IMG/VR virus record: IMGVR_UViG_3300043411_002804
Origin: an uncultured virus (IMG/VR IMGVR_UViG_3300043411_002804)
Lineage: Duplodnaviria > Heunggongvirae > Uroviricota > Caudoviricetes
DNA length: 64,000 nt
Direction: 5' to 3' (one strand)
Shown here: piece after piece, positions 4,012-62,992 of the stretch
How positions within the stretch are numbered: position 1 is the stretch's first letter
How the letters are laid out: every line of letters starts with the position of its first letter
Position numbers and translations under genes: made by a program
Notes under the pieces: model-generated
What the model was told of the DNA's origin: nothing
The model's input: only the letters and a program-made list of their open reading frames with translations
The model's database searches: none

Positions 4012-5502
4012 TTATTTGTTTTGGCTAAAGGCTTTAAGAACAAAGAGCCTTTGGCCAGCATCATATATTTTTGCCCAGCCCAATTCTTTGGCATGTTCTC
4101 TTTCTGTTAATTTACGTTCATCCATATTCGCCCGACACGGAAGTCTGTTGTAAGTATTAAAATAATCGGTCCACTCCCAACCTAATGTTTCTTTTTCTAA
4201 TTTGAAACCTTGTTTAATTAGAAATTCACCAGTTCCATATCTAAGATCTACCCAATAATGAATTGGTAAATGTGATAAATCTTTTTTAATTTGCTTTAAT
4301 AATTTGGAAAAGGCCCCCATTACATTATGATTAATTTTAGAGCAAAATCTTTCTATTTTTATTTTATCTTTAAAAATTTTATAAGACATTATAGACACTA
4401 ACTCGTCTTTATAATAAAGACCTATATGCCTTGCCTTTTTAAATCCTTTAATGTGATTAACATTAAGAAACTCTTTAGCGTTCGCAAAAGTTACTGTGTT
4501 TATCTTTGTTTTTCTAGCGCCGAGTTTATAATGGTTTTTTTTAAGATTATTGTTAAGTATTGATTTGATTATTTCAAAATTATTAAAAACTTCATTTGAT
4601 CGGAATTGAAAAATTCTTAACTTATTTATTTCAAACAAATTTCTCATTGTAAAATGATATTTTTTATCCTTCTCTTTTTCTGAGTGCCAATATAAACCAT
4701 CTACATTTAAAAAAATAAAATCATTTAGTTTAAAATCAGGTCTGAATCTTAAATTCTCGCATGGTGATTTATTCCAACGCTCAAAAGAACAATTTTTAGA
4801 AATTATTTGTTCAATATCAGTTAGAGATTTTTTATATCCTGATAAAAAAGTATTTAATTCAAGTTCTGACGTTTGCGGATTACGTTTTAAATATCTGTTT
4901 AAAGTAATTTGTGGAATATTATTCTCTATAGATATTTGTCTAATCGATTTTCCAAAATATTTTTTGAATTTTGGCTCCAACTTTTTAGCCAACTTTATGT
5001 TTTTTTCTTTTAAGGTTTTACAATTACCGGATATATGTTTCTTTTTAAATTTTTCATTTTTTTTAAACTTAACTGAAGCGTCCTGTGAAACATTTTCCAC
5101 ACCATATTTTGATAAGTTGGTGGTTATTGTTTTTAAAACAATGACATTATTTTGAGTTGAATGTTTGCAACCATACCTTAAAAAGGTTGTGTTTTCTCTA
5201 CATATCTTGATATGATCTATATCTTTTTTTAAGTTGTTTTCTTTAATTAATTTAGACACCAAGTTACGGTTACAACACAACAGTTTAGAAATAGATTCAA
5301 TACTTAAATTTTCAACAATATATTTTTGATATAAAAAATCTTTTTCATAAGAAAGGTTTAAATTTTTAATATTCCATTCATCAAATAAAAGCTTGAGTTT
5401 CTTTCTATTAATGTCATTAATTCTTGATATTTCGAGTAATGATTTTCGTTCTATTACATATTGTTGATATAAAAGCTCTTTGGTCATTAACACAACCCTC
5501 AC
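4012..5502 (-). CDS. free-standing homing-endonuclease-like protein (Hef-like; Vsr/PD-(D/E)XK domain plus C-terminal GNAT-like domain)
   Basis: N-terminal LYQKYI repeats, KYGVENVSQ, RPDFKL..VDGLYWH, ARKTKI..FLNVNHIKG..ERFCSK..IYDAGQ; lies antisense inside a structural gene cluster. Confidence 0.65.
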   Translation of the reverse strand: MRVVLMTKELLYQQYVIERKSLLEISRINDINRKKLKLLFDEWNIKNLNLSYEKDFLYQKYIVENLSIESISKLLCCNRNLVSKLIKENNLKKDIDHIKICRENTTFLRYGCKHSTQNNVIVLKTITTNLSKYGVENVSQDASVKFKKNEKFKKKHISGNCKTLKEKNIKLAKKLEPKFKKYFGKSIRQISIENNIPQITLNRYLKRNPQTSELELNTFLSGYKKSLTDIEQIISKNCSFERWNKSPCENLRFRPDFKLNDFIFLNVDGLYWHSEKEKDKKYHFTMRNLFEINKLRIFQFRSNEVFNNFEIIKSILNNNLKKNHYKLGARKTKINTVTFANAKEFLNVNHIKGFKKARHIGLYYKDELVSIMSYKIFKDKIKIERFCSKINHNVMGAFSKLLKQIKKDLSHLPIHYWVDLRYGTGEFLIKQGFKLEKETLGWEWTDYFNTYNRLPCRANMDERKLTEREHAKELGWAKIYDAGQRLFVLKAFSQNK

Positions 5503-5561
5503 TCTTATACTACTATTTTGTAGTATTCAAGATACTAAATAATAACATATCGGAGATATCA

Positions 5562-6365
5562 ATGATTACTACTTTGGATGGTGTTATAGCGGGTATGTTA
5601 GCTCCGCAAGAATTTTTAAAAATTGGTGCGACAGCAGAAGCTGCTGGAGTTTTTTATTCATTATTTTATTCTGCGGGAAGACCCGGAGCAGCTGTGGCTC
5701 CGACCCCAGGTTTGGCTGGTGCCGCATTAACAACCTATAGTGGGCAAATACCATGGACAAACCCTGGTAGTGGAAATAGTTATTTAGCTAGATTTCAAGC
5801 CGCTAGTACTGTGGCATGTAGATTAAGTTTACTTGATCGCTTATGGCATAATTCTGGTTTTACCGTAACTACTACAACAGCTCAAACAGTTAACTCAGTT
5901 ACCTGGCCAGCCAGAGATAGTTTAGGAGCTACTAATGGTGACGGTATAATGGTTGGTATCGAAGTTAGCACAGCAACAACAAATGGTTCAGCAATAGCAA
6001 ACATGACTATGTCATACACAAATTCAAATGGAACCGCTGGAAAAACTGCAACAATTACATCATATCCTGCCACTGCAGCACTAGGAACTTTCGTTCCATT
6101 TAATTTAGCGGCAGGTGATACTGGAGTTCGTTCAATTCAATCATTGACACTGGGAACATCTCTTGTTACCGGCAACGTTCATTTGGTGGCATATCGTACT
6201 TTGGCATATCTTGATTTAATCTTAGCCAATACAGGAAACTCTTTGGATGCTATTACTGGCGGATTTGTTAAGTTATATGATAACACGGTTCCATATTTGG
6301 TATATCTACCTGCAGCGACTACAGCAAATACTGTAAGCGGTATGATGATAGTTACCCAAGGATAA
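5562..6365 (+). CDS. probable virion structural protein (A/G/T-rich)
   Basis: ATG 5562 after a GGAG RBS; composition typical of tail/decoration proteins. Confidence 0.7.
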   Translation: MITTLDGVIAGMLAPQEFLKIGATAEAAGVFYSLFYSAGRPGAAVAPTPGLAGAALTTYSGQIPWTNPGSGNSYLARFQAASTVACRLSLLDRLWHNSGFTVTTTTAQTVNSVTWPARDSLGATNGDGIMVGIEVSTATTNGSAIANMTMSYTNSNGTAGKTATITSYPATAALGTFVPFNLAAGDTGVRSIQSLTLGTSLVTGNVHLVAYRTLAYLDLILANTGNSLDAITGGFVKLYDNTVPYLVYLPAATTANTVSGMMIVTQG

Positions 6366-6368
6366 AAT

Positions 6369-9158
6369 GTGTCAAGTTCTGGCAAAGGTATATATCCATT
6401 AAATTCGCTCTTAAAAAAGAGATTTATGAGAAGTGGATATATTGAAATTTTATATGAAAAATCATTAGACTTTCAAACGAAAGACTTTCCGTTAAAAGAC
6501 TTTTTCTTCGGAGCTGCTGGATCTAATTATTCTGACATTGTTTCCGAAACAGTTAATATTTCTGAAGCAATTTCTTATTTTCTAAATGCATCAATACTTG
6601 ATTCGGAATCCTTATCCGTATCAGATACATCAAGTTTAGTATCTAACCTAACCTCTTTGTTTTCTGAATCTTTGAGTATAAGCGAATCAGGTTCATATTT
6701 TTATTCTGCCAATCAAATAAATTCTGAAAACTTAAACATATCTGATTCTGTTTCTTTTTTATTTTCTGTAAATATTTTAAATTCAGAATCTTTATCTGTT
6801 ATTGATAATCTTAACAGTCAGGGTTCTTTTTCAATTTTAAATTCATTGTCTTTAGACATTGTGGAACAAACAGTATCGTTTGCCAACGCTCAAATATCTG
6901 TTTTTGATGAACATACCCTGTCAGAATCATCGACATTTGCTGCTAATAATAATGCATCTTTTTCTAACACCGTTTCATTAATTGAATCAAATTCTGTCAC
7001 AGCAACATTTTTAATTCCACAATCAGAAGTTGTAAATGTTTCTGAAATTTTATTGAACAATAGTAATTATTATCAAAATCAAAGTGCATCAATATCAATA
7101 TCAGATGCTACCTTACCCCAATTTAATGCAAATTTATTAAACGATTTAACATTAATAATTTCTGAAGATAAGGTTGTTTTTTCCGAATTGCTGATATCGG
7201 GTTCAGAAGTTTTAATATTATCTGACAATATCTCATCTGCTGCAAGCCAAACTAATTCTTTTAATGAAAATATAAATTTAACTGAAACTCAAGCAACTAG
7301 TACAATTCAATCACTATCCCTTTCAGAAAATATAAATGTCTTTGACCTATCATCAGAGCAATTAAATTCAATTCAGTCTCAAGATATATCAATCGATATT
7401 TTTGATGCTATAACTAACTTAGTAAATTTCAACATAAGCTCATCAAGTACGTTAACCCTAATTGAATTAGAAAACACCAGCTCTGAACAAACCAACTTTT
7501 TAACAGATGCAATTGAGGTTGTTGAATCAACAAGCACACAATCTAATCAATTCGAATCACTTTCAAATAATTTAATAATAAACAACGATTTGCTATTTAT
7601 ATCTGGATTTAACCATAGTGACATTGATTCTGTTACAATTATTGAAAGTGCAAATTCTAATTCAGATCAATTTAATTCTTTTTCAGAATTAATAAACGTT
7701 ACAGATTCATCCACCTCTACATCAGAACAATATAATTTATTATCTGAAATAATTGCGATTTCAGACAACTCAGAAATTGTCTCAGGTCTAAACAATTTAT
7801 TAAATGAATCTATTAATTTAAATGAATCATCTTCTTTTAATTATAGTGCTAACCAAAATATTTCTGAACTCATAACACTAAATGAAACTCTCGGGTTTTT
7901 TACCGCATTTCTACCTACATTTTCTGATATAAACCTCAATATGTTTGAGGATGTTGGGTTTAATTCCATTTATTCTATGAATGTATCAGAGACAATCAAT
8001 ATTTTAGAATTAGGTAATTCAAATTCAGAACAATATAATACATTAACTGATTTCGTTAATGTTTTAGATTCAACATCATTTTTTGTAGGAATGAATTCTA
8101 TTGTTAGCGAAAACCTAACTTTTAATGGTGTTGTAAATTCTGCATCAGAATTTTTTGGAACAACCTCAGATTCCTTTGGTTTAAGCGAAAACATTGAGCT
8201 ATCACAAAATATGGAGAATAATCTTTCTTCAACCATAAGCCTTGTAGAATCTGAATTGATTAAAATTGATTTCAATCAAAATAATCTAGAAGAACTCAAT
8301 TTAATTGAATTAACTCATGCATCTTTTGGAATGTCGTCACTATTAAACGAAGGTATTGCATTAGATGATGATTTGATTTCACAATCAAATTTAAGTATTT
8401 TCACCTCTACCTCATTAAGTATAAGTGAATTATTAAATAACGTTTTTAACACTAATTTAGACATTGCTGATAGCATCTCAATTAACATAATTTCTTCAGC
8501 AAAACAGGAAAATAATGTTGTTTATGAAGAAATTTTTTCATTGTCAGAAGATGCAACAAATACATTTGATTTCTATATTAATCATTTTGATTCATTAGCA
8601 ATATCAGATAACATAATTTCTATGTATGGCCCAAACATTGTTCAAGAAAGTATACTCTCTTTGTTGGAAAGCTCTTCATTCGTTGGTGAATACAAACAAT
8701 ATATAGAATTTCAAATTGATGTTAATGAACTCCTAACTTATTCAAGTTCTTTCGAAAGTAACTTAACCGATAGTATCTTGCTGGAAGAATTATCTATATC
8801 ACAATCAAACAATCATTTCAGCGGTAGTGAAGTTATATTCATTGTGGAAACTAAACTAGTAAACTTTGGTGCAACGGTAATTAGTAGTGATTCAATATCA
8901 GTATCAGATGCTAATTCTCTAAGTTGCGAATATTTTATATCTTATAATGAAAGTTTGATGCTTACAGCTAATTTGGTAGCCTCGAAGAGCTACATCATGA
9001 ATTTAAATGAATTAATATCATTAGCCAACACTATTTTTAGTGAAACAGGGCATAGTGAGCCTAATGATTTAGTTATTACATGGAGTGGTGATCAATTGCA
9101 AAATGATGGAATTAGAATTCAAGGTAATATAGTTATCAATCAACAAAATTCTTTTTAA
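6369..9158 (+). CDS. large Ser/Glu/Asn-rich quasi-repetitive protein, probable virion fibre/surface protein
   Basis: 929-aa ORF with recurring SE(S/N)(L/I)x(I/L/V)S(D/E) motif about every 25 aa. Confidence 0.7.
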   Translation: MSSSGKGIYPLNSLLKKRFMRSGYIEILYEKSLDFQTKDFPLKDFFFGAAGSNYSDIVSETVNISEAISYFLNASILDSESLSVSDTSSLVSNLTSLFSESLSISESGSYFYSANQINSENLNISDSVSFLFSVNILNSESLSVIDNLNSQGSFSILNSLSLDIVEQTVSFANAQISVFDEHTLSESSTFAANNNASFSNTVSLIESNSVTATFLIPQSEVVNVSEILLNNSNYYQNQSASISISDATLPQFNANLLNDLTLIISEDKVVFSELLISGSEVLILSDNISSAASQTNSFNENINLTETQATSTIQSLSLSENINVFDLSSEQLNSIQSQDISIDIFDAITNLVNFNISSSSTLTLIELENTSSEQTNFLTDAIEVVESTSTQSNQFESLSNNLIINNDLLFISGFNHSDIDSVTIIESANSNSDQFNSFSELINVTDSSTSTSEQYNLLSEIIAISDNSEIVSGLNNLLNESINLNESSSFNYSANQNISELITLNETLGFFTAFLPTFSDINLNMFEDVGFNSIYSMNVSETINILELGNSNSEQYNTLTDFVNVLDSTSFFVGMNSIVSENLTFNGVVNSASEFFGTTSDSFGLSENIELSQNMENNLSSTISLVESELIKIDFNQNNLEELNLIELTHASFGMSSLLNEGIALDDDLISQSNLSIFTSTSLSISELLNNVFNTNLDIADSISINIISSAKQENNVVYEEIFSLSEDATNTFDFYINHFDSLAISDNIISMYGPNIVQESILSLLESSSFVGEYKQYIEFQIDVNELLTYSSSFESNLTDSILLEELSISQSNNHFSGSEVIFIVETKLVNFGATVISSDSISVSDANSLSCEYFISYNESLMLTANLVASKSYIMNLNELISLANTIFSETGHSEPNDLVITWSGDQLQNDGIRIQGNIVINQQNSF

Positions 9159-11742: not shown

Positions 11743-12105
11743 ATGGCAAGAGTAGCAAGTTTTGAGTTTTATGATGATCCTGTTGCACATACAGGTAATT
11801 CTACCTGTACTATTAATTGGACTGCCCAAACAGTAACCTTCTTAGCATCAACCGTAAGTTTTGCTTACGTTGAGCAACTAGCTGATGTTATTGATTTGTT
11901 AGCAGGACAAGATGTTACCGACTTTGAAGTTGATGTAACTAGAACCATTTATAAACCCGATGGTACTGTAGCGGTAATAGTTACTGCTATACCTAACGTA
12001 ATTGATGGTAGTATTACATCAATTGTAGTTGGAGCCACTTATTCTAAGGCTAAGGCTAAAGATTTAGCGCAAGGTCTTCGTGACTTTGTTGTAATCGCCC
12101 TATAA
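11743..12105 (+). CDS. hypothetical protein, possibly structural
   Basis: Strong AAGGAG RBS; followed by a terminator. Confidence 0.75.
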   Translation: MARVASFEFYDDPVAHTGNSTCTINWTAQTVTFLASTVSFAYVEQLADVIDLLAGQDVTDFEVDVTRTIYKPDGTVAVIVTAIPNVIDGSITSIVVGATYSKAKAKDLAQGLRDFVVIAL

Positions 12106-12136
12106 AAACTTAGTTTGCAAAATTAAAAAAACTACA

Positions 12137-12176
12137 ATGCCTTGAGGTCATAACCCTTCAAGGCATATTTTTTTTT
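12137..12176. terminator. bidirectional intrinsic terminator
   Basis: ATGCCTTGA/TCAAGGCAT stem with T-runs on both strands, between the 11743 gene and the CRISPR array. Confidence 0.7.
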
Positions 12177-12177
12177 G

Positions 12178-12407
12178 CTTACAACACACTACCTTTTGTG
12201 TATAGCATTGTCACCCGGCGACCGCCTACAACACACTATCTTTTTTGTATAGCATTGTTACGGTGAGCAAGCCACGCTGCGAGGCGCCATAGAGAGCCTA
12301 CAACACACTATCTTTTATGCATAGCATTGTTACGCTTCTCGGGCCGCATCATAGAGATCATGGCTACTGACCTACAACACACTATCTTTTTTGTATAGCA
12401 TTGTCAC
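12178..12407 (-). CRISPR. type V mini CRISPR array: 4 repeats of 37 bp, spacers of 37, 35 and 10 bp
   Basis: Repeats at 12178-12214, 12225-12261, 12297-12333 and 12371-12407; minus-strand consensus GTGACAATGCTATACAAAAAAGATAGTGTGTTGTAGG, others differing from the 12371 copy at 1-3 positions; unique spacers; adjacent to cas12f. Confidence 0.88.
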
Positions 12408-12786
12408 TGTATGCTTAATTATGGGCGTGATAACTTAATTATTTTGCCCATTTGCGATTGGTTGTAATAAATCACATTTTATTTTAAACACAAAAGATAT
12501 ATGCGTCATCCTATTTCAAGGATATGGTGGTTTAATTCAGCGCTTTCGCCTCTTGCGAGCGGTTACTGCAATTTGTTACATCACCGAACCACTCGCAACC
12601 CACCTTAGGGAGAGTTTAATATGCAGTTTCCTATAGCGCTCGACACTAATCTCTTAATGAGATAGCCTTCAAGTTTCGCAAAACTTTTAATTAAACTTTT
12701 ATTTTCATTCCGCTTATAAAGCGCTCCCTTTATAGCCGTGTAATCGGCTTATCTCAAGCTTTTAAAAATCTTGAGCTTATCGCTTT
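12408..12786 (-). ncRNA. putative tracrRNA / guide scaffold and leader
   Basis: ORF-free, relatively GC-rich region with at least 7 hairpins and two short anti-repeat-like segments (12461-12467, 12488-12499). Confidence 0.55.
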
Positions 12787-14286
12787 TTATGCATCAACTG
12801 CTCGATGCGCGATATTAATTGCAGCATTAAAATCCCTGTTGAGAGATTTGCCACAAGAATTACATTTATATTCTCTATCTGATAACTTTAAATCTAGTTT
12901 TAGATATCCACAACAAGAACATGTTTTTGATGTGTTCTTAGCATCAACTGCAACTACTTTGATTCCTTTGCTTTGGGCAGCATCCTCTATTTTTTTTAAT
13001 AAACCAAGCCTAAACTTTTTGGCATAAAATTTTCGTTTAAACCTTCTTTGTTTAGCAGGCAATCCTTCACTCTCCTCAATTGATTTTCTGTGAGCCCATC
13101 CTGTAAGATTTTCTATACCTATTAGGTTACAATTATTTTGAGATGCTAAATTTATGATCGCTGCAGCTATTTGCTTTTCAGCAGTATCCATTGAACGTAA
13201 TCTTTTACCACTAAGTTTTGAAATATTTCTAATTTTTCTTTCGACACCTCGTCCTACTCTTTGCTCATAAAGTTCTTTGTTAAAATTTGAACGTTTAGAA
13301 ATTTCTTTAGAAATTTTTTCTACACTGTTTAAAGTAGCCTCTGGTAACTTAAAATCATAAATTTTATCATCGACCTTTTTATCATAAGAAATAACTGCAC
13401 AAACACAAGCAGTTTTTATCCCTAAATCAATTCCGAGAACTTTTTGGTTTTTCAGAATATTTTCTGATGGCGAAAATGAATAAGCTATTTCTAGAAACCA
13501 TTTTCTTTTTTTCAATATTAATCTAGAGGCACCAATTTTATATTCACCGGAAAATAAGTTTAATAAGATGTTTTTTAAATAAGCATCATTTTTATGATGA
13601 CAACCAATTTTTGTTTCAACGATTTTATTTTTATTTTTTTCATTAAAAATTTTCATCAAAAACACACCCTCTTGAGAGGTGTGTTTTTTAATTCCATCAG
13701 CTCTAATGATAATTGGAAAAGTTTTAAAATTAGCAAGCGTTTTTTCACCAATATTTACCTTATCTTTATCTAAAGAAAACTTTTTGGCAATTAAACTTGA
13801 TGCTGCTGCTAAATTGGATGTGTTTAAATTTCCTGCGTAAATTTTTTGATTTCCAGCTAATTTGTTGTACTTAAGTTCATCATCTATTTCAAATAGATTG
13901 TTGTTTGTTATTAATCTATAAGCATTAGTTTCATAAGAAACTTTTGTATTTACAAAAGTTTTGTTTCCATTTTCATCAACAAAATCTATGAAAATTGTCT
14001 TTTGCTTTTTAGGATTTAAAAGATCCGATTGTTTAAGCAACTTGCCTTTAAAATCTCTTGCCGGAACTTGCTTTGTAGTTTGAAGTGGAAAACCAGGTTT
14101 TTCAGGATCTTCCTTTGAAGGCATTGGAAATACACCTAAACTCATAGAATAAAAAATTGATATAATTTTATTAGCCGCCAATCGAAGCGCACGTTCCTCA
14201 TTATATAAACGAGAATATAATTCGTCTTTTTGAGCTTTGGTTTTACCAGGAAAAAATATAGGAAATGATGCAGTTCTTGTAACCAT
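12787..14286 (-). CDS. cas12f: Cas12f1-like (type V-F, TnpB-derived) RNA-guided nuclease
   Basis: RuvC-I GIDLG (D287), RuvC-II IENL (E392), zinc finger CSCC..CNSC, RuvC-III RDFNAA (D485); LFSGEYKIGAS..KWFLEIAYSF and LNTSNL blocks recall AsCas12f1; adjacent CRISPR array. Confidence 0.85.
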   Translation of the reverse strand: MVTRTASFPIFFPGKTKAQKDELYSRLYNEERALRLAANKIISIFYSMSLGVFPMPSKEDPEKPGFPLQTTKQVPARDFKGKLLKQSDLLNPKKQKTIFIDFVDENGNKTFVNTKVSYETNAYRLITNNNLFEIDDELKYNKLAGNQKIYAGNLNTSNLAAASSLIAKKFSLDKDKVNIGEKTLANFKTFPIIIRADGIKKHTSQEGVFLMKIFNEKNKNKIVETKIGCHHKNDAYLKNILLNLFSGEYKIGASRLILKKRKWFLEIAYSFSPSENILKNQKVLGIDLGIKTACVCAVISYDKKVDDKIYDFKLPEATLNSVEKISKEISKRSNFNKELYEQRVGRGVERKIRNISKLSGKRLRSMDTAEKQIAAAIINLASQNNCNLIGIENLTGWAHRKSIEESEGLPAKQRRFKRKFYAKKFRLGLLKKIEDAAQSKGIKVVAVDAKNTSKTCSCCGYLKLDLKLSDREYKCNSCGKSLNRDFNAAINIAHRAVDA

Positions 14287-17820: not shown

Positions 17821-18198
17821 TTAAAACCCCAACTTAGATAAAATTTTATCTTCCCATTCTAAACATTCTTGATTATTAATCTTATCAATAGGTGCCATAT
17901 ATTCAATTTCGTTGAAAGCTTCAAAAATTTTTGAGGCTTGATATTTATCATTTTCGGTTATTATAACTGGTATCAACTTTCCTTTTAACATCTTCGAAAA
18001 CATATACCCTGTCCCAAAAGGTAAGTCGAATTTAACCAATATTCCGATAATATGATCTGGGCCATTAATATATTCCAAAAATTCTTGTGAACGACATGTT
18101 ACAATTAACATAACATTTGGATCTAAATCATATATTTTTTTTCTAAATTTTTTTAAAAGTGCTGGTTGATCATCCAGACAAATTATCACTTCCGCCAT
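17821..18198 (-). CDS. CheY-like receiver domain protein, apparently lacking the phosphoacceptor Asp
   Basis: IICLDD acidic pair, ILVKFDLP..TG, IPVII pattern. Confidence 0.55.
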   Translation of the reverse strand: MAEVIICLDDQPALLKKFRKKIYDLDPNVMLIVTCRSQEFLEYINGPDHIIGILVKFDLPFGTGYMFSKMLKGKLIPVIITENDKYQASKIFEAFNEIEYMAPIDKINNQECLEWEDKILSKLGF

Positions 18199-22512: not shown

Positions 22513-22833
22513 TTATTGAAATCTTAATCCAATAACCCCAGTTAGAATTAAAGATATAAATAGAACTTTATAAAAGGTTAAAGTTTCACCAAGAAAATGA
22601 TTTAAAATCGTGATTGATACCGTTCCAATTCCAACCCATATAATGTATGCAGCATCAACTTTTATGTTTTTTAAAGAAATTGAAAAAAATGAAAAGCTTA
22701 TAATAAGTAAGACGAAAGCTAAAATTGTTGGAACAACTTTCGACCCACCTTCGCTTTTGGAAAAGGCAAATACCCAAGCAGGTTCCATTAGTCCAGCCAA
22801 TATAATGAAAAACCAACTATAAATCATTTGCAT
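22513..22833 (-). CDS. small multidrug resistance (SMR/SugE-like) transporter
   Basis: Four TM segments; W..LAGLME..W and AY.IW.GIG motifs. Confidence 0.8.
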   Translation of the reverse strand: MQMIYSWFFIILAGLMEPAWVFAFSKSEGGSKVVPTILAFVLLIISFSFFSISLKNIKVDAAYIIWVGIGTVSITILNHFLGETLTFYKVLFISLILTGVIGLRFQ

Positions 22834-22846
22834 ATTCCTTTTGTCC

Positions 22847-22886
22847 AAAAAAAATCCTTGTTGTCAATTCACTGACAACAAGGATT
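22847..22886 (-). terminator. intrinsic terminator
   Basis: 14-bp stem AATCCTTGTTGTCA/TGACAACAAGGATT followed by a T-run, after the 22909 gene. Confidence 0.75.
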
Positions 22887-61611: not shown

Positions 61612-62796
61612 TCAGTCCCCCGCATTTTGCTGATCAAAAAATGATGATTCCTCATATTCTTTTCTAAAGTTTTCAATCGCCTTAATTCCAAGACCAAGAA
61701 CTTTGGAGCCAATCAATTTCTCAACCTCTCCATTTCCATAAAGATATTCTATACCTACCTGGAATAGATAAGAATCATTTTCGGAAAGCTTCTTCATCTC
61801 AAGAACAGCCTCCTTTCGAGAGAGATTTGCAAACCCCTCCCTTTTAATGATTTCTAGAAACTGATTAACTTGCTCCCTTACGAACTTAAGACGTTCTATA
61901 TACGAATTGAACATAGGCTCAAGAAATGAGCATACCTCAAAGTCTAATCCAATTAGAAACAAACTTTCCTTCAATTGATCAAAGGTTTCAATATTCTTCA
62001 TCCAACAAAATTGAGTGAAACGTTCCTCCGTCATCTGATACTTAAAAGTATGAATTCTGATATATTCCGCTGCCTTAATCTTGCAAGGGAGAATTGTTCC
62101 GTTCGGAAGATAAGACCATACAACAATGCCTTCTGCGCTCTTCCAATTGCGGATCTTCTCAACGATATCCTTTAACGACCCATTTAAATCGTAAAACTTA
62201 ACTGCTGGAGTTCCATAAGTCTCCTCCAAAGACTTTACAGTCTCTGGAGATGAAACAAACTCAGGCGGATCAGCTGAAAGATCCATTAGACCCAAAACTG
62301 TCAGAGTAGACTCATCATACTTGACAACAATTTGATTCTCAGGACCAGTATACTCAAACAAAACTGAGTATCGTGTATCCAATGATGGATCCAACAATCG
62401 AGGATATCTTGTCTGCACAAGATTCATAATGTTTGTATCAAACGGATACCCCAAATTATGAGAACCCCTTGTACGAAAATGTACCTGACCATTAATTACA
62501 GAACGAATCAACAACGATCCATCCATCTTTTCTGAGAAAATAGATGTTCCGTTTCGAATAGATTCTTCGGTAAGAATATCTAAATCAGGACATTCACCAT
62601 AATTATGGAATTTCATCAGAGATGCAGAAATAACATGCCCTGATGCATCCAAAAGCAAACTCCGAAGATGTCGATCTTCGGAAGACCACTTATGCTTCGT
62701 GAAAGTGGGGCCGATCAACCAAACCTTTTCACCATTCAAGATCCTTGACTGAACTTGAAAATCATCCTTGTTGATTGTATCAACATCAATGTACAT
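61612..62796 (-). CDS. RNA ligase 1 (T4 Rnl1/RnlA-like)
   Basis: KFHNYGE, motif I EKMDGSL, FRTRG, LFEY, EGIVV, KIK; start MYIDV after AAGGA. Confidence 0.85.
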   Translation of the reverse strand: MYIDVDTINKDDFQVQSRILNGEKVWLIGPTFTKHKWSSEDRHLRSLLLDASGHVISASLMKFHNYGECPDLDILTEESIRNGTSIFSEKMDGSLLIRSVINGQVHFRTRGSHNLGYPFDTNIMNLVQTRYPRLLDPSLDTRYSVLFEYTGPENQIVVKYDESTLTVLGLMDLSADPPEFVSSPETVKSLEETYGTPAVKFYDLNGSLKDIVEKIRNWKSAEGIVVWSYLPNGTILPCKIKAAEYIRIHTFKYQMTEERFTQFCWMKNIETFDQLKESLFLIGLDFEVCSFLEPMFNSYIERLKFVREQVNQFLEIIKREGFANLSRKEAVLEMKKLSENDSYLFQVGIEYLYGNGEVEKLIGSKVLGLGIKAIENFRKEYEESSFFDQQNAGD

Positions 62797-62809
62797 TTTG
62801 AATCCTTTT

Positions 62810-62992
62810 TTAATCTTTGATACACTCGCAGACTGTACCGTAATTTGTGCTGTTACTATACCCTTGCACAGCACAAGTATTTTGACACGTTATTTCAACA
62901 GTTTTGCTAACTACGGCACCAAGTAAAGAAAGCGTAAAGATTACTGCGGCTACCAACATAAAAATGTTTATCAATAGATTTTCATTGTCCAT
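62810..62992 (-). CDS. small membrane protein with a Cys-rich C-terminus
   Basis: One TM helix; GGAG RBS. Confidence 0.6.
   Translation of the reverse strand: MDNENLLINIFMLVAAVIFTLSLLGAVVSKTVEITCQNTCAVQGYSNSTNYGTVCECIKD

Follow-up and report, generated by a model that had tools for sequence, protein, structure and literature searches.

A Cas12f-like nuclease gene, a putative trans-activating CRISPR RNA (tracrRNA) and a short CRISPR array lie together on the minus strand of a 64,000-nucleotide (nt) stretch of DNA from an uncultured virus (IMG/VR record IMGVR_UViG_3300043411_002804), hereafter referred to as the window. We consider it reasonably probable that this locus is a phage-borne minimal type V interference module that works in the manner of Cas12f1 and whose first two spacers are directed against competing phages or mobile elements rich in guanine and cytosine (GC). 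That the machinery works like Cas12f1, whatever its target may be, can be proposed with good confidence.

The effector gene encodes a protein of 499 amino acids (aa) with the RuvC triad D287/E392/D485 and a Cys4 finger (CxxC at 456 and 475), all at the positions given in a first-pass annotation of the window. Between its stop codon and the first repeat lie 379 nt which, when folded together with that repeat, have a z-score of -6.3, with none of 100 shuffled sequences being as stable; the earlier description of about 380 nt of structured non-coding DNA behind the gene is thus borne out. The components of the locus are as follows, from the gene to the distal end of the array.

12787..14286, minus strand: Cas12f-like effector gene, 499 aa; RuvC residues D287/E392/D485, Cys4 finger C456/459/475/478
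13942..14118 (limits approximate), minus strand: about 45-60 extra residues in the recognition (REC) region, roughly aa 57-115, within the N39-to-D173 span
12997..13110 (limits approximate), minus strand: lengthened RuvC lid after E392, with two predicted helices (397-406 and 411-421)
12620..12786, minus strand: hairpin-rich RNA from the stop codon to the tracrRNA core; the loop of a second candidate hairpin in it (about 12752-12733) could also pair near the repeat end
12478..12619, minus strand: putative tracrRNA core, 142 nt, with a short anti-repeat (12609-12606), a GAG..CUC stem (12596-12555), two small hairpins and a long anti-repeat (12509-12488)
12408..12477, minus strand: AT-rich leader-like stretch with small hairpins, judged by its sequence
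12371..12407, minus strand: repeat 1 (R1), 37 nt, leader end
12334..12370, minus strand: spacer 1, 37 nt, 54% GC, no target found
12297..12333, minus strand: repeat 2 (R2)
12262..12296, minus strand: spacer 2, 35 nt, 66% GC, no target found
12225..12261, minus strand: repeat 3 (R3)
12215..12224, minus strand: spacer 3, just 10 nt in length and 90% GC, predicted to fold onto the first 5 nt of repeat 4
12178..12214, minus strand: repeat 4 (R4), terminal, its 3' end altered where the short anti-repeat would pair
12127..12176, no strand assigned: hairpin with A/T tracts on both sides (arms 12127-12145 and 12158-12176), probable two-way terminator

The effector and its clade

Judging from its sequence and predicted structure, the effector is a compact RuvC protein (of the 400-700-aa class) whose closest characterised relatives are the Cas12f proteins. 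The top PADLOC models are Cas12u3 (E = 3.7e-54) and Cas12f (E = 1.4e-53), and a sequence search of the PDB retrieved OsCas12f as the best match (121 bits, E = 4e-34), followed by AsCas12f (92-97 bits). An AlphaFold model of the protein, with a mean predicted local distance difference test score (pLDDT) of 80.6 and a predicted template modelling score (pTM) of 0.53, has As/OsCas12f structures at ranks 1-10 of a Foldseek search, with modest TM-scores of 0.37-0.45. With a profile built from 14 Cas12f-like loci the effector reaches 205 bits, compared to 97 bits with one of 16 IS605-type TnpBs.

An ordinary TnpB of the IS200/IS605 or IS607 type, with its omega-RNA situated beside chance repeats, is a very improbable identity for this protein and has largely been refuted already. 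It is true that the generic guided_TnpB is the sole NCBIfam model above its cut-off (118 versus 100 bits), that PHROGs calls the protein a transposase, and that an approximately unbiased (AU) test leaves room for a union with TnpBs (see below). However, the IS200_TnpB model reaches 50 bits where its cut-off is 425, and IS607_TnpB 54 bits where 350 are required; Pfam detects no HTH_OrfB domain in the protein, the window contains neither TnpA nor a second copy of the gene, and the repeats constitute a real array accompanied by an anti-repeat. The start codon, moreover, is separated by a single nucleotide from the stop codon of the last of five small genes with DGPA repeats. The Cas12f2 model (NF049972) is not reached by the effector either, with 93 bits against a curated cut-off of 450.

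The first-pass annotation had called the protein divergent, and an exhaustive search of 1.84 billion representatives agrees, the closest among the top matches being 27-36% identical to the effector. Forty-one proteins of its clade were aligned, and the clade including the window effector was recovered both by FastTree (35 of the 94 rows, Shimodaira-Hasegawa (SH) support 99) and by a quick IQ-TREE inference under LG+G4 (9 of 27 rows, support of 99 in the SH-like approximate likelihood ratio test). The 94-row tree comprised the 26 best matches after the query, matches P0002-P0010, every second match from P0147 to P0189 (at least 380 aa), 8 TnpBs and 29 locus proteins; both programs warned of long branches elsewhere in the trees and of uneven amino-acid composition. 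The As and Os sequences themselves were kept outside the trees and had L246 and L243 (398 and 360 bits against AsCas12f) as stand-ins. When the clade was turned into a profile, its 13 best PDB matches were all entries of Cas12f orthologues (9nzp being labelled TnpB in the sequence file), with up to 176 bits for AsCas12f and 31 bits for the ISFba1 TnpB; the effector scores 323 bits against the same profile, a value inflated by the clade set having been chosen by likeness to it.

A tree forcing the effector together with five As-like loci was rejected (p-AU = 0.0012), and As-like proteins score 360-398 bits against AsCas12f, where the window effector scores 92-97. Because of this rejection, these low scores and the longer RuvC lid, the effector falls, in sequence comparisons, outside the AsCas12f1/OsCas12f1 group in the strict sense (V-F1/V-U3). 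The kinship with AsCas12f1 put forward in the first-pass annotation therefore survives in part: the protein is a Cas12f-like type V effector by sequence and fold, but not a member of the AsCas12f1 group. The comparison with Cas12f and TnpB sets that the annotation had suggested yielded a separate clade and profiles favouring Cas12f but did not reject a union with TnpB.

In the sequences aligned, the longer lid is a mark of the whole clade, the span from E392 to C456 measuring 63-73 aa in all 41 clade proteins (64 in the window effector) versus 47-56 aa in 16 of 16 CRISPR-linked Cas12f-like loci. The lid, which stretches from the glutamate of RuvC-II to the zinc finger, is described as gating the active site and controlling activation in OsCas12f (PMC13186708). 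The REC insertion, on the other hand, is private to the window effector, in which the N39-to-D173 span amounts to 134 aa as compared to 66-91 aa in the 40 other clade members; it has no family match and is poorly modelled, with low pLDDT at 60-73 and 97-101. The D-E-D triad is kept in 31 of the 41 clade members, one further protein being truncated.

All in all, the effector probably stands on a branch deep within type V-F. Altae-Tran 2023 may already include the clade among its 40 branches V-U6 to V-U45; no paper tied to the long-lid clade was encountered in the literature searched, most subscription journals lying outside it, and with no characterised protein matched the branch seems to be unstudied. 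Genomic context for other clade members was found neither in IMG/VR, phages and plasmids, nor among the matches listed in a metagenome scan, nor in the best 80 of a GTDB pattern scan, nor in three phylum samples, each made up of 401 genomes, in which the sole match (L251) is closer to the As-like loci. This last locus (G775:C26), in a genome from the phylum of a Planctomycetota metagenome-assembled genome, combines a Cas12f-like gene with a four-repeat array.

Putative guide RNA, array and proposed mechanism

The RNA encoded behind the gene is predicted from its sequence to pair with the repeat through a long duplex of 17-21 base pairs (bp). The long anti-repeat at 12509-12488 forms 17 (R1, R3) or 21 (R2, R4) pairs with one bulge, as opposed to 10-11 pairs in the opposite orientation, so the minus strand is the RNA strand. 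Among 150 control segments, the numbers with equal pairs are 2, 0, 2 and 0 for R1 to R4, and none has equally many Watson-Crick pairs as well. The core by itself folds with a z-score of -3.5 (none of 200 shuffles as stable). Type V-F systems are described as pairing tracrRNA and repeat by a long and a short duplex (PMC11246509), and in the present locus, too, a short repeat:anti-repeat duplex in the Cas12f manner is probably formed at the 3' end of the repeat: bases 12609-12606 are unpaired in the core alone and paired with the repeat end when the core is cofolded with R1. A hairpin whose loop complements the four terminal bases of the repeat from the same locus, and which is followed by a GAG..CUC stem, is present in 8 of 11 CRISPR-linked Cas12f-like loci (the window included), versus 16 of 110 swapped pairings, with repeat ends set by hand. 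By eye, the order of the RNA elements agrees with that of Cas12f-like tracrRNAs, and the 37-nt repeat resembles the repeat of the As-like locus L246. A tracrRNA-like region in several copies is seen in a Lysinibacillus plasmid (L249:1645-3700), where the segments alternate with repeats to either side of the gene.

The four repeats match R1 at 37, 34, 36 and 34 of 37 positions (R1 to R4), and no further copies with at least 26 of 37 positions exist elsewhere in the window. The first-pass annotation was right about the repeats, yet it spoke of four repeats with unique spacers, whereas four repeats delimit three spacers (37, 35 and 10 nt), the 10-nt length of the last having gone unmentioned. Guides of As/SpCas12f1 are reported to need at least 16 nt for cutting (PMC8548392; PMC9942177); since spacer 3 is below this length and folded onto repeat 4, it is probably a non-functional remnant. 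Spacers 1 and 2 (12262-12370) have an 8-nt word in common, possibly by chance or by virtue of related targets.

The hairpin behind the array is most readily understood as a terminator acting in both directions, placed between the array and the open reading frame (ORF) 11743-12105, which converges on it. Its presence agrees with the terminator of the earlier annotation, but a terminator consensus scan calls it on the plus strand only, and the two sites found compare with 1.6 expected from shuffles. A sigma70-like site occurs at 12509-12481, the promoter scan having yielded five sites in total against 8.9 by chance.

The annotation's claim that cas1, cas2, cas4 and TnpA are missing stands: none of the 116 other ORFs of the window (at least 70 aa) matches a Cas model in PADLOC or a transposase or Cas family in Pfam. 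The PADLOC check of the UvrD helicase considered the best 5 of 57 families, and the absence of adaptation genes pertains to the 64-kb window, part of a 77.8-kb contig of which about 14 kb lie outside. To call the system self-contained, as was done earlier, is nevertheless too strong. An array without adaptation genes must receive its spacers in trans, and the maturation of the tracrRNA and CRISPR RNA (crRNA) probably requires a host RNase.

We envisage the following mechanism. The effector gene, starting 1 nt behind its neighbour, would be transcribed as the last member of an operon otherwise made up of small repeat genes. The tracrRNA is predicted to pair with each repeat by the long duplex and by a 4-bp short duplex at the 3' end of the repeat, and by analogy with As/SpCas12f1 a host RNase would probably cut the pre-crRNA within the long duplex, into guides made of part of a repeat and a spacer. 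The effector, two copies of which probably share a single guide, would then find a 5' protospacer-adjacent motif, form an R-loop and cut double-stranded DNA with its RuvC site, whose residues are intact. Spacers 1 and 2 would direct it to GC-rich DNA, most likely that of competing phages or mobile elements in a GC-rich host, while spacer 3 would be a remnant. New spacers would be supplied in trans, the adaptation module belonging either to the host or to a part of the phage genome beyond the contig.

Several results weigh against such an interpretation. In terms of duplex energy, control segments as low as the long anti-repeat are found at chance level for R1 (65/200) and R3 (41/200), and less often for R2 (11/200) and R4 (4/200). 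The loop test is passed in the window by 32 of 256 four-mers. A covariance model of 14 other tracrRNA regions (0.51 bits per position) misses the proposed core, giving no significant match and a weak preference for the hairpin at 12754-12678 (E = 0.13). In the trees, a group uniting the clade and ten CRISPR-linked Cas12f loci has a support of 59 only, and joining the effector to four IS605 TnpBs is not rejected (p-AU = 0.165). A catalytic position is altered in 9 of the 41 clade proteins in the alignment, some of these cases perhaps being alignment slips. Finally, no protospacer turned up in any scan made, and the ORFs scanned included no recognisable capsid or terminase gene.

Part of these results would suit a separate capture of an array by a TnpB lineage, making the clade a type V subtype of its own outside Cas12f, whose effectors may act as monomers. 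The clade's support of 99 in two trees, its poorly supported union with the Cas12f loci, the union with TnpB left standing, the clade-wide longer lid and the core missed by the covariance model are all compatible with such an origin, as are the many independent origins of Cas12 from TnpB that have been published (PMC10691335). We nevertheless regard it as quite unlikely, given that the profile and fold searches all put Cas12f first, far above TnpB, that the RNA elements are ordered as in Cas12f-like tracrRNAs, and that the repeat looks like that of L246.

Spacer targets and occurrence in other samples

The spacers contain 52 G+C in 82 nt (63%), compared to 33.5% in the window (P = 3e-8). This contrast implies that they derive from DNA unlike the phage's own, and no more than that. 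No match of the spacers beyond chance exists elsewhere in the window, and when the array was compared by blastn with 50,697 phage and 72,556 plasmid records, no hit was stronger than E = 0.7. Exact scans were carried out with the 5' starts of the spacers, the 3' halves being covered by blastn only. The start of spacer 1 has no exact match in the two collections scanned for it, JGI metagenomes and IMG/VR; that of spacer 2, scanned in GTDB species representatives and IMG/VR, has none in the former (first 22 nt) and a single one in the latter, which diverges after base 18. The repeat motif gave four single matches in IMG/VR, none of them an array.

The same machinery might be turned against the host chromosome, cutting or repressing host genes, with the 10-nt spacer serving as a guide for binding without cutting. 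GC-rich spacers would be as expected of a GC-rich host, phage spacers against the host and a catalytically broken phage Cas14 have been reported (PMC7162821), the 16-nt minimum for cutting by As/SpCas12f1 would leave a 10-nt guide to binding, and altered catalytic positions do occur in the clade. On the other hand, the triad of the window effector is intact, the start of spacer 2 lacks an exact match among the GTDB species representatives, spacer 3 folds onto repeat 4, and spacer length varies in an ordinary relative as well (L246, with one shorter spacer). The first-pass annotation had named the host or competing elements as what the system is used against. A host target appears unlikely to us, and we retain competing phages or mobile elements as the more probable targets of spacers 1 and 2.

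Words of the locus were found in eight sequencing runs from five studies, four runs being compared in detail; no RNA data set is among the runs listed. The cassette occurs also in a groundwater (X2) and an activated-sludge (X3) study: in X2 the gene and the tracrRNA region are covered at about 99% identity, and in X3 parts are covered at 95-99%. One X2 contig of the gene has 10 differences, six synonymous and four conservative, the latter within the first 161 residues, and the catalytic residues are untouched. Reads of X2 and X3 leave the spacer bins uncovered, a result that does not in itself demonstrate different spacers; X2 has signs of a different R1. In run X1, which may be the source of the window, the leader-side contig stops at 12378 rather than 12375, which, if 31-mers were used in the assembly (an assumption), suggests a further R1 copy with another neighbour. 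The X1 depth on the R1 bin is 97.6, of which 37.3 is explained by the two contigs listed, while the depth of the next bin (38.0) is fully explained; depth arithmetic hints at some 2-9 extra repeat copies, which may correspond to leader-end spacers missing from the window, to a second array or to a host array.

These data bear on the notion of a decaying relic, a cassette acquired once that neither gains spacers nor works now. Such a fate would be in keeping with only two full spacers beside a truncated third, with repeats that are not identical, with a weaker pairing of R1 and R3 to the anti-repeat in comparison to R2 and R4, and with a window devoid of adaptation genes. Yet the reading frame is open, the triad intact and the strain differences mostly synonymous, and the cassette is present in three studies, X1 hinting at additional R1-type repeats and X2 at an R1 that differs, so that the relic scenario is improbable.

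Probable phage setting, known systems and significance

The replicon looks like a large bacteriophage. The window, with a GC content of 33.5%, encodes 12 tRNA genes, Hen1, a T4-type RNA ligase, a UvrD helicase, an HNH protein and several methyltransferases, and a Shine-Dalgarno-like motif precedes 39 of 89 ATG-started ORFs versus a background of 9%. The tRNAs, RNA repair genes, helicase, methyltransferases and Shine-Dalgarno motifs fit a large phage, an origin that we infer from gene content since no capsid or terminase gene was recognised. An Rfam scan of the window detected tRNAs and nothing else. Relatives of the phage were not found in IMG/VR, nor was a host in the searches made.

Other genes of the window deserve a brief mention. 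Small paralogues with 1-3 DGPA repeats and a common C-terminal motif account for 28 of the 117 ORFs and form tandem clusters between 65 and 52815; their matches to DUF6745 are weak only, and many more variants exist among contigs of runs X1 and X2. In an unrelated low-GC contig (L088:1247-3133), a Cas12f-like gene with downstream repeats also stands right behind DGPA-repeat genes, its protein falling outside the window clade. The Hen1-like methyltransferase and the T4-type RNA ligase (753-2063 and 61615-62874) are RNA repair genes, possibly acting against host ribotoxins; the closest Hen1 relatives in the phage collection, at 26-27% identity, belong to phages of 158-385 kb. On the plus strand, 5424-9158 encodes a 313-aa ORF and a 929-aa repetitive protein rich in Ser, Asn and Ile, both without PHROG matches and perhaps specifying the virion surface or fibres. 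A small multidrug-resistance (SMR/QacE-like) transporter gene lies at 22516-22848 of this phage-like genome, and a 125-aa ORF at 17821-18198 resembles a response-regulator receiver domain by eye, with no Pfam match at E 0.001.

Among known systems, the locus resembles Cas12f1 (AsCas12f1, 8J12/7WJU; OsCas12f, 9NZQ; SpCas12f1, 9I8Y) in its size class and predicted fold, in possessing the D-E-D triad and a Cys4 finger, in having a putative tracrRNA with an anti-repeat between gene and array (PMC8548392), and probably in combining long and short duplexes. Arrays without cas1/2/4 are described as the rule in the greater Cas12f branch (PMC10691335, Altae-Tran 2023). It differs from Cas12f1 in its low scores against As and Os (92-121 bits), its longer lid, private REC insertion and separate clade, and in an intergenic RNA of 379 nt compared to tracrRNAs of 153-169 nt. 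With IS200/IS605 and IS607 TnpBs it shares the RuvC/TNB core, but it has an array and an anti-repeat, and it lacks HTH_OrfB and, within the window, TnpA and a second copy.

That large phages carry minimal CRISPR systems, as the first-pass annotation stated, is indeed published knowledge for adaptation-less types V-F and V-U: Al-Shayeb 2020 (PMC7162821) describes V-U and V-F systems with compact arrays in huge phages, nearly all without Cas1/2/4, and a landfill survey (PMC12607003) lists 161 viral type V nuclease candidates, including several separate clades. As far as these descriptions go, the huge-phage (Cas14i/j/k, V-U3) and landfill-phage systems share with ours a large phage, a compact array, conserved catalytic residues and the absence of an adaptation module. 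To the eye, the published Cas14i/j/k proteins resemble ordinary TnpBs, and a search for two motifs typical of the clade retrieved neither from the supplement that lists them; the V-U3 entries of Al-Shayeb were available as short RuvC-III fragments alone.

The cultured phages Alicyclobacillus MMB025, which has an annotated array beside a related gene, and Bacillus Mgbh1 likewise bear a Cas12f-like gene and a mini-array of 2-3 repeats, with no cas1/2 annotation in the stretches examined. Their effectors, however, are 28-33% identical to that of the window, their repeats lie upstream of the gene, and the Mgbh1 protein is As-like. In both (MMB025, L244:1690-3268; Mgbh1, L243:2049-3541) the Cas12f-like gene carries a transposase annotation and has both the repeats and a tracrRNA-like region upstream of it. 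Cas12r of Thermus Lalka phages, whose spacers are reported to target competing mobile elements, and MvCas12m of a myxophage, for which adaptation genes are described as absent, also combine a phage type V effector with an array; by their descriptions, however, they belong to other effector families, and MvCas12m is described without a recognised tracrRNA. A phage mini-CRISPR without adaptation genes is therefore not new as a type of system; what differs is the effector branch.

A more far-reaching picture can be sketched, although we consider it speculative and rather doubtful. The long-lid clade would be an unnamed type V subtype, basal to or outside Cas12f and living mainly on uncultured phages, with a tracrRNA fold of its own, lid-gated activation and nuclease-dead regulators among its members (those with altered catalytic positions). 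The present locus would be the first with an array and a tracrRNA, and its low-GC phage would still gain spacers in trans, directed at the DNA of a GC-rich host or of that host's parasites.

Under the Cas12f1-like interpretation that we favour, the locus brings together all the parts of a testable kit for a deep clade related to Cas12f, namely the effector, the putative tracrRNA core, and the orientation and 3' end of the repeat. As an editor, judged by its sequence, the protein would be one candidate among many nucleases below 500 aa. Since the lid is described as controlling the activation of OsCas12f, the clade-wide longer lid may mean other kinetics or specificity, in a clade that sits near the transition from TnpB to Cas12f.

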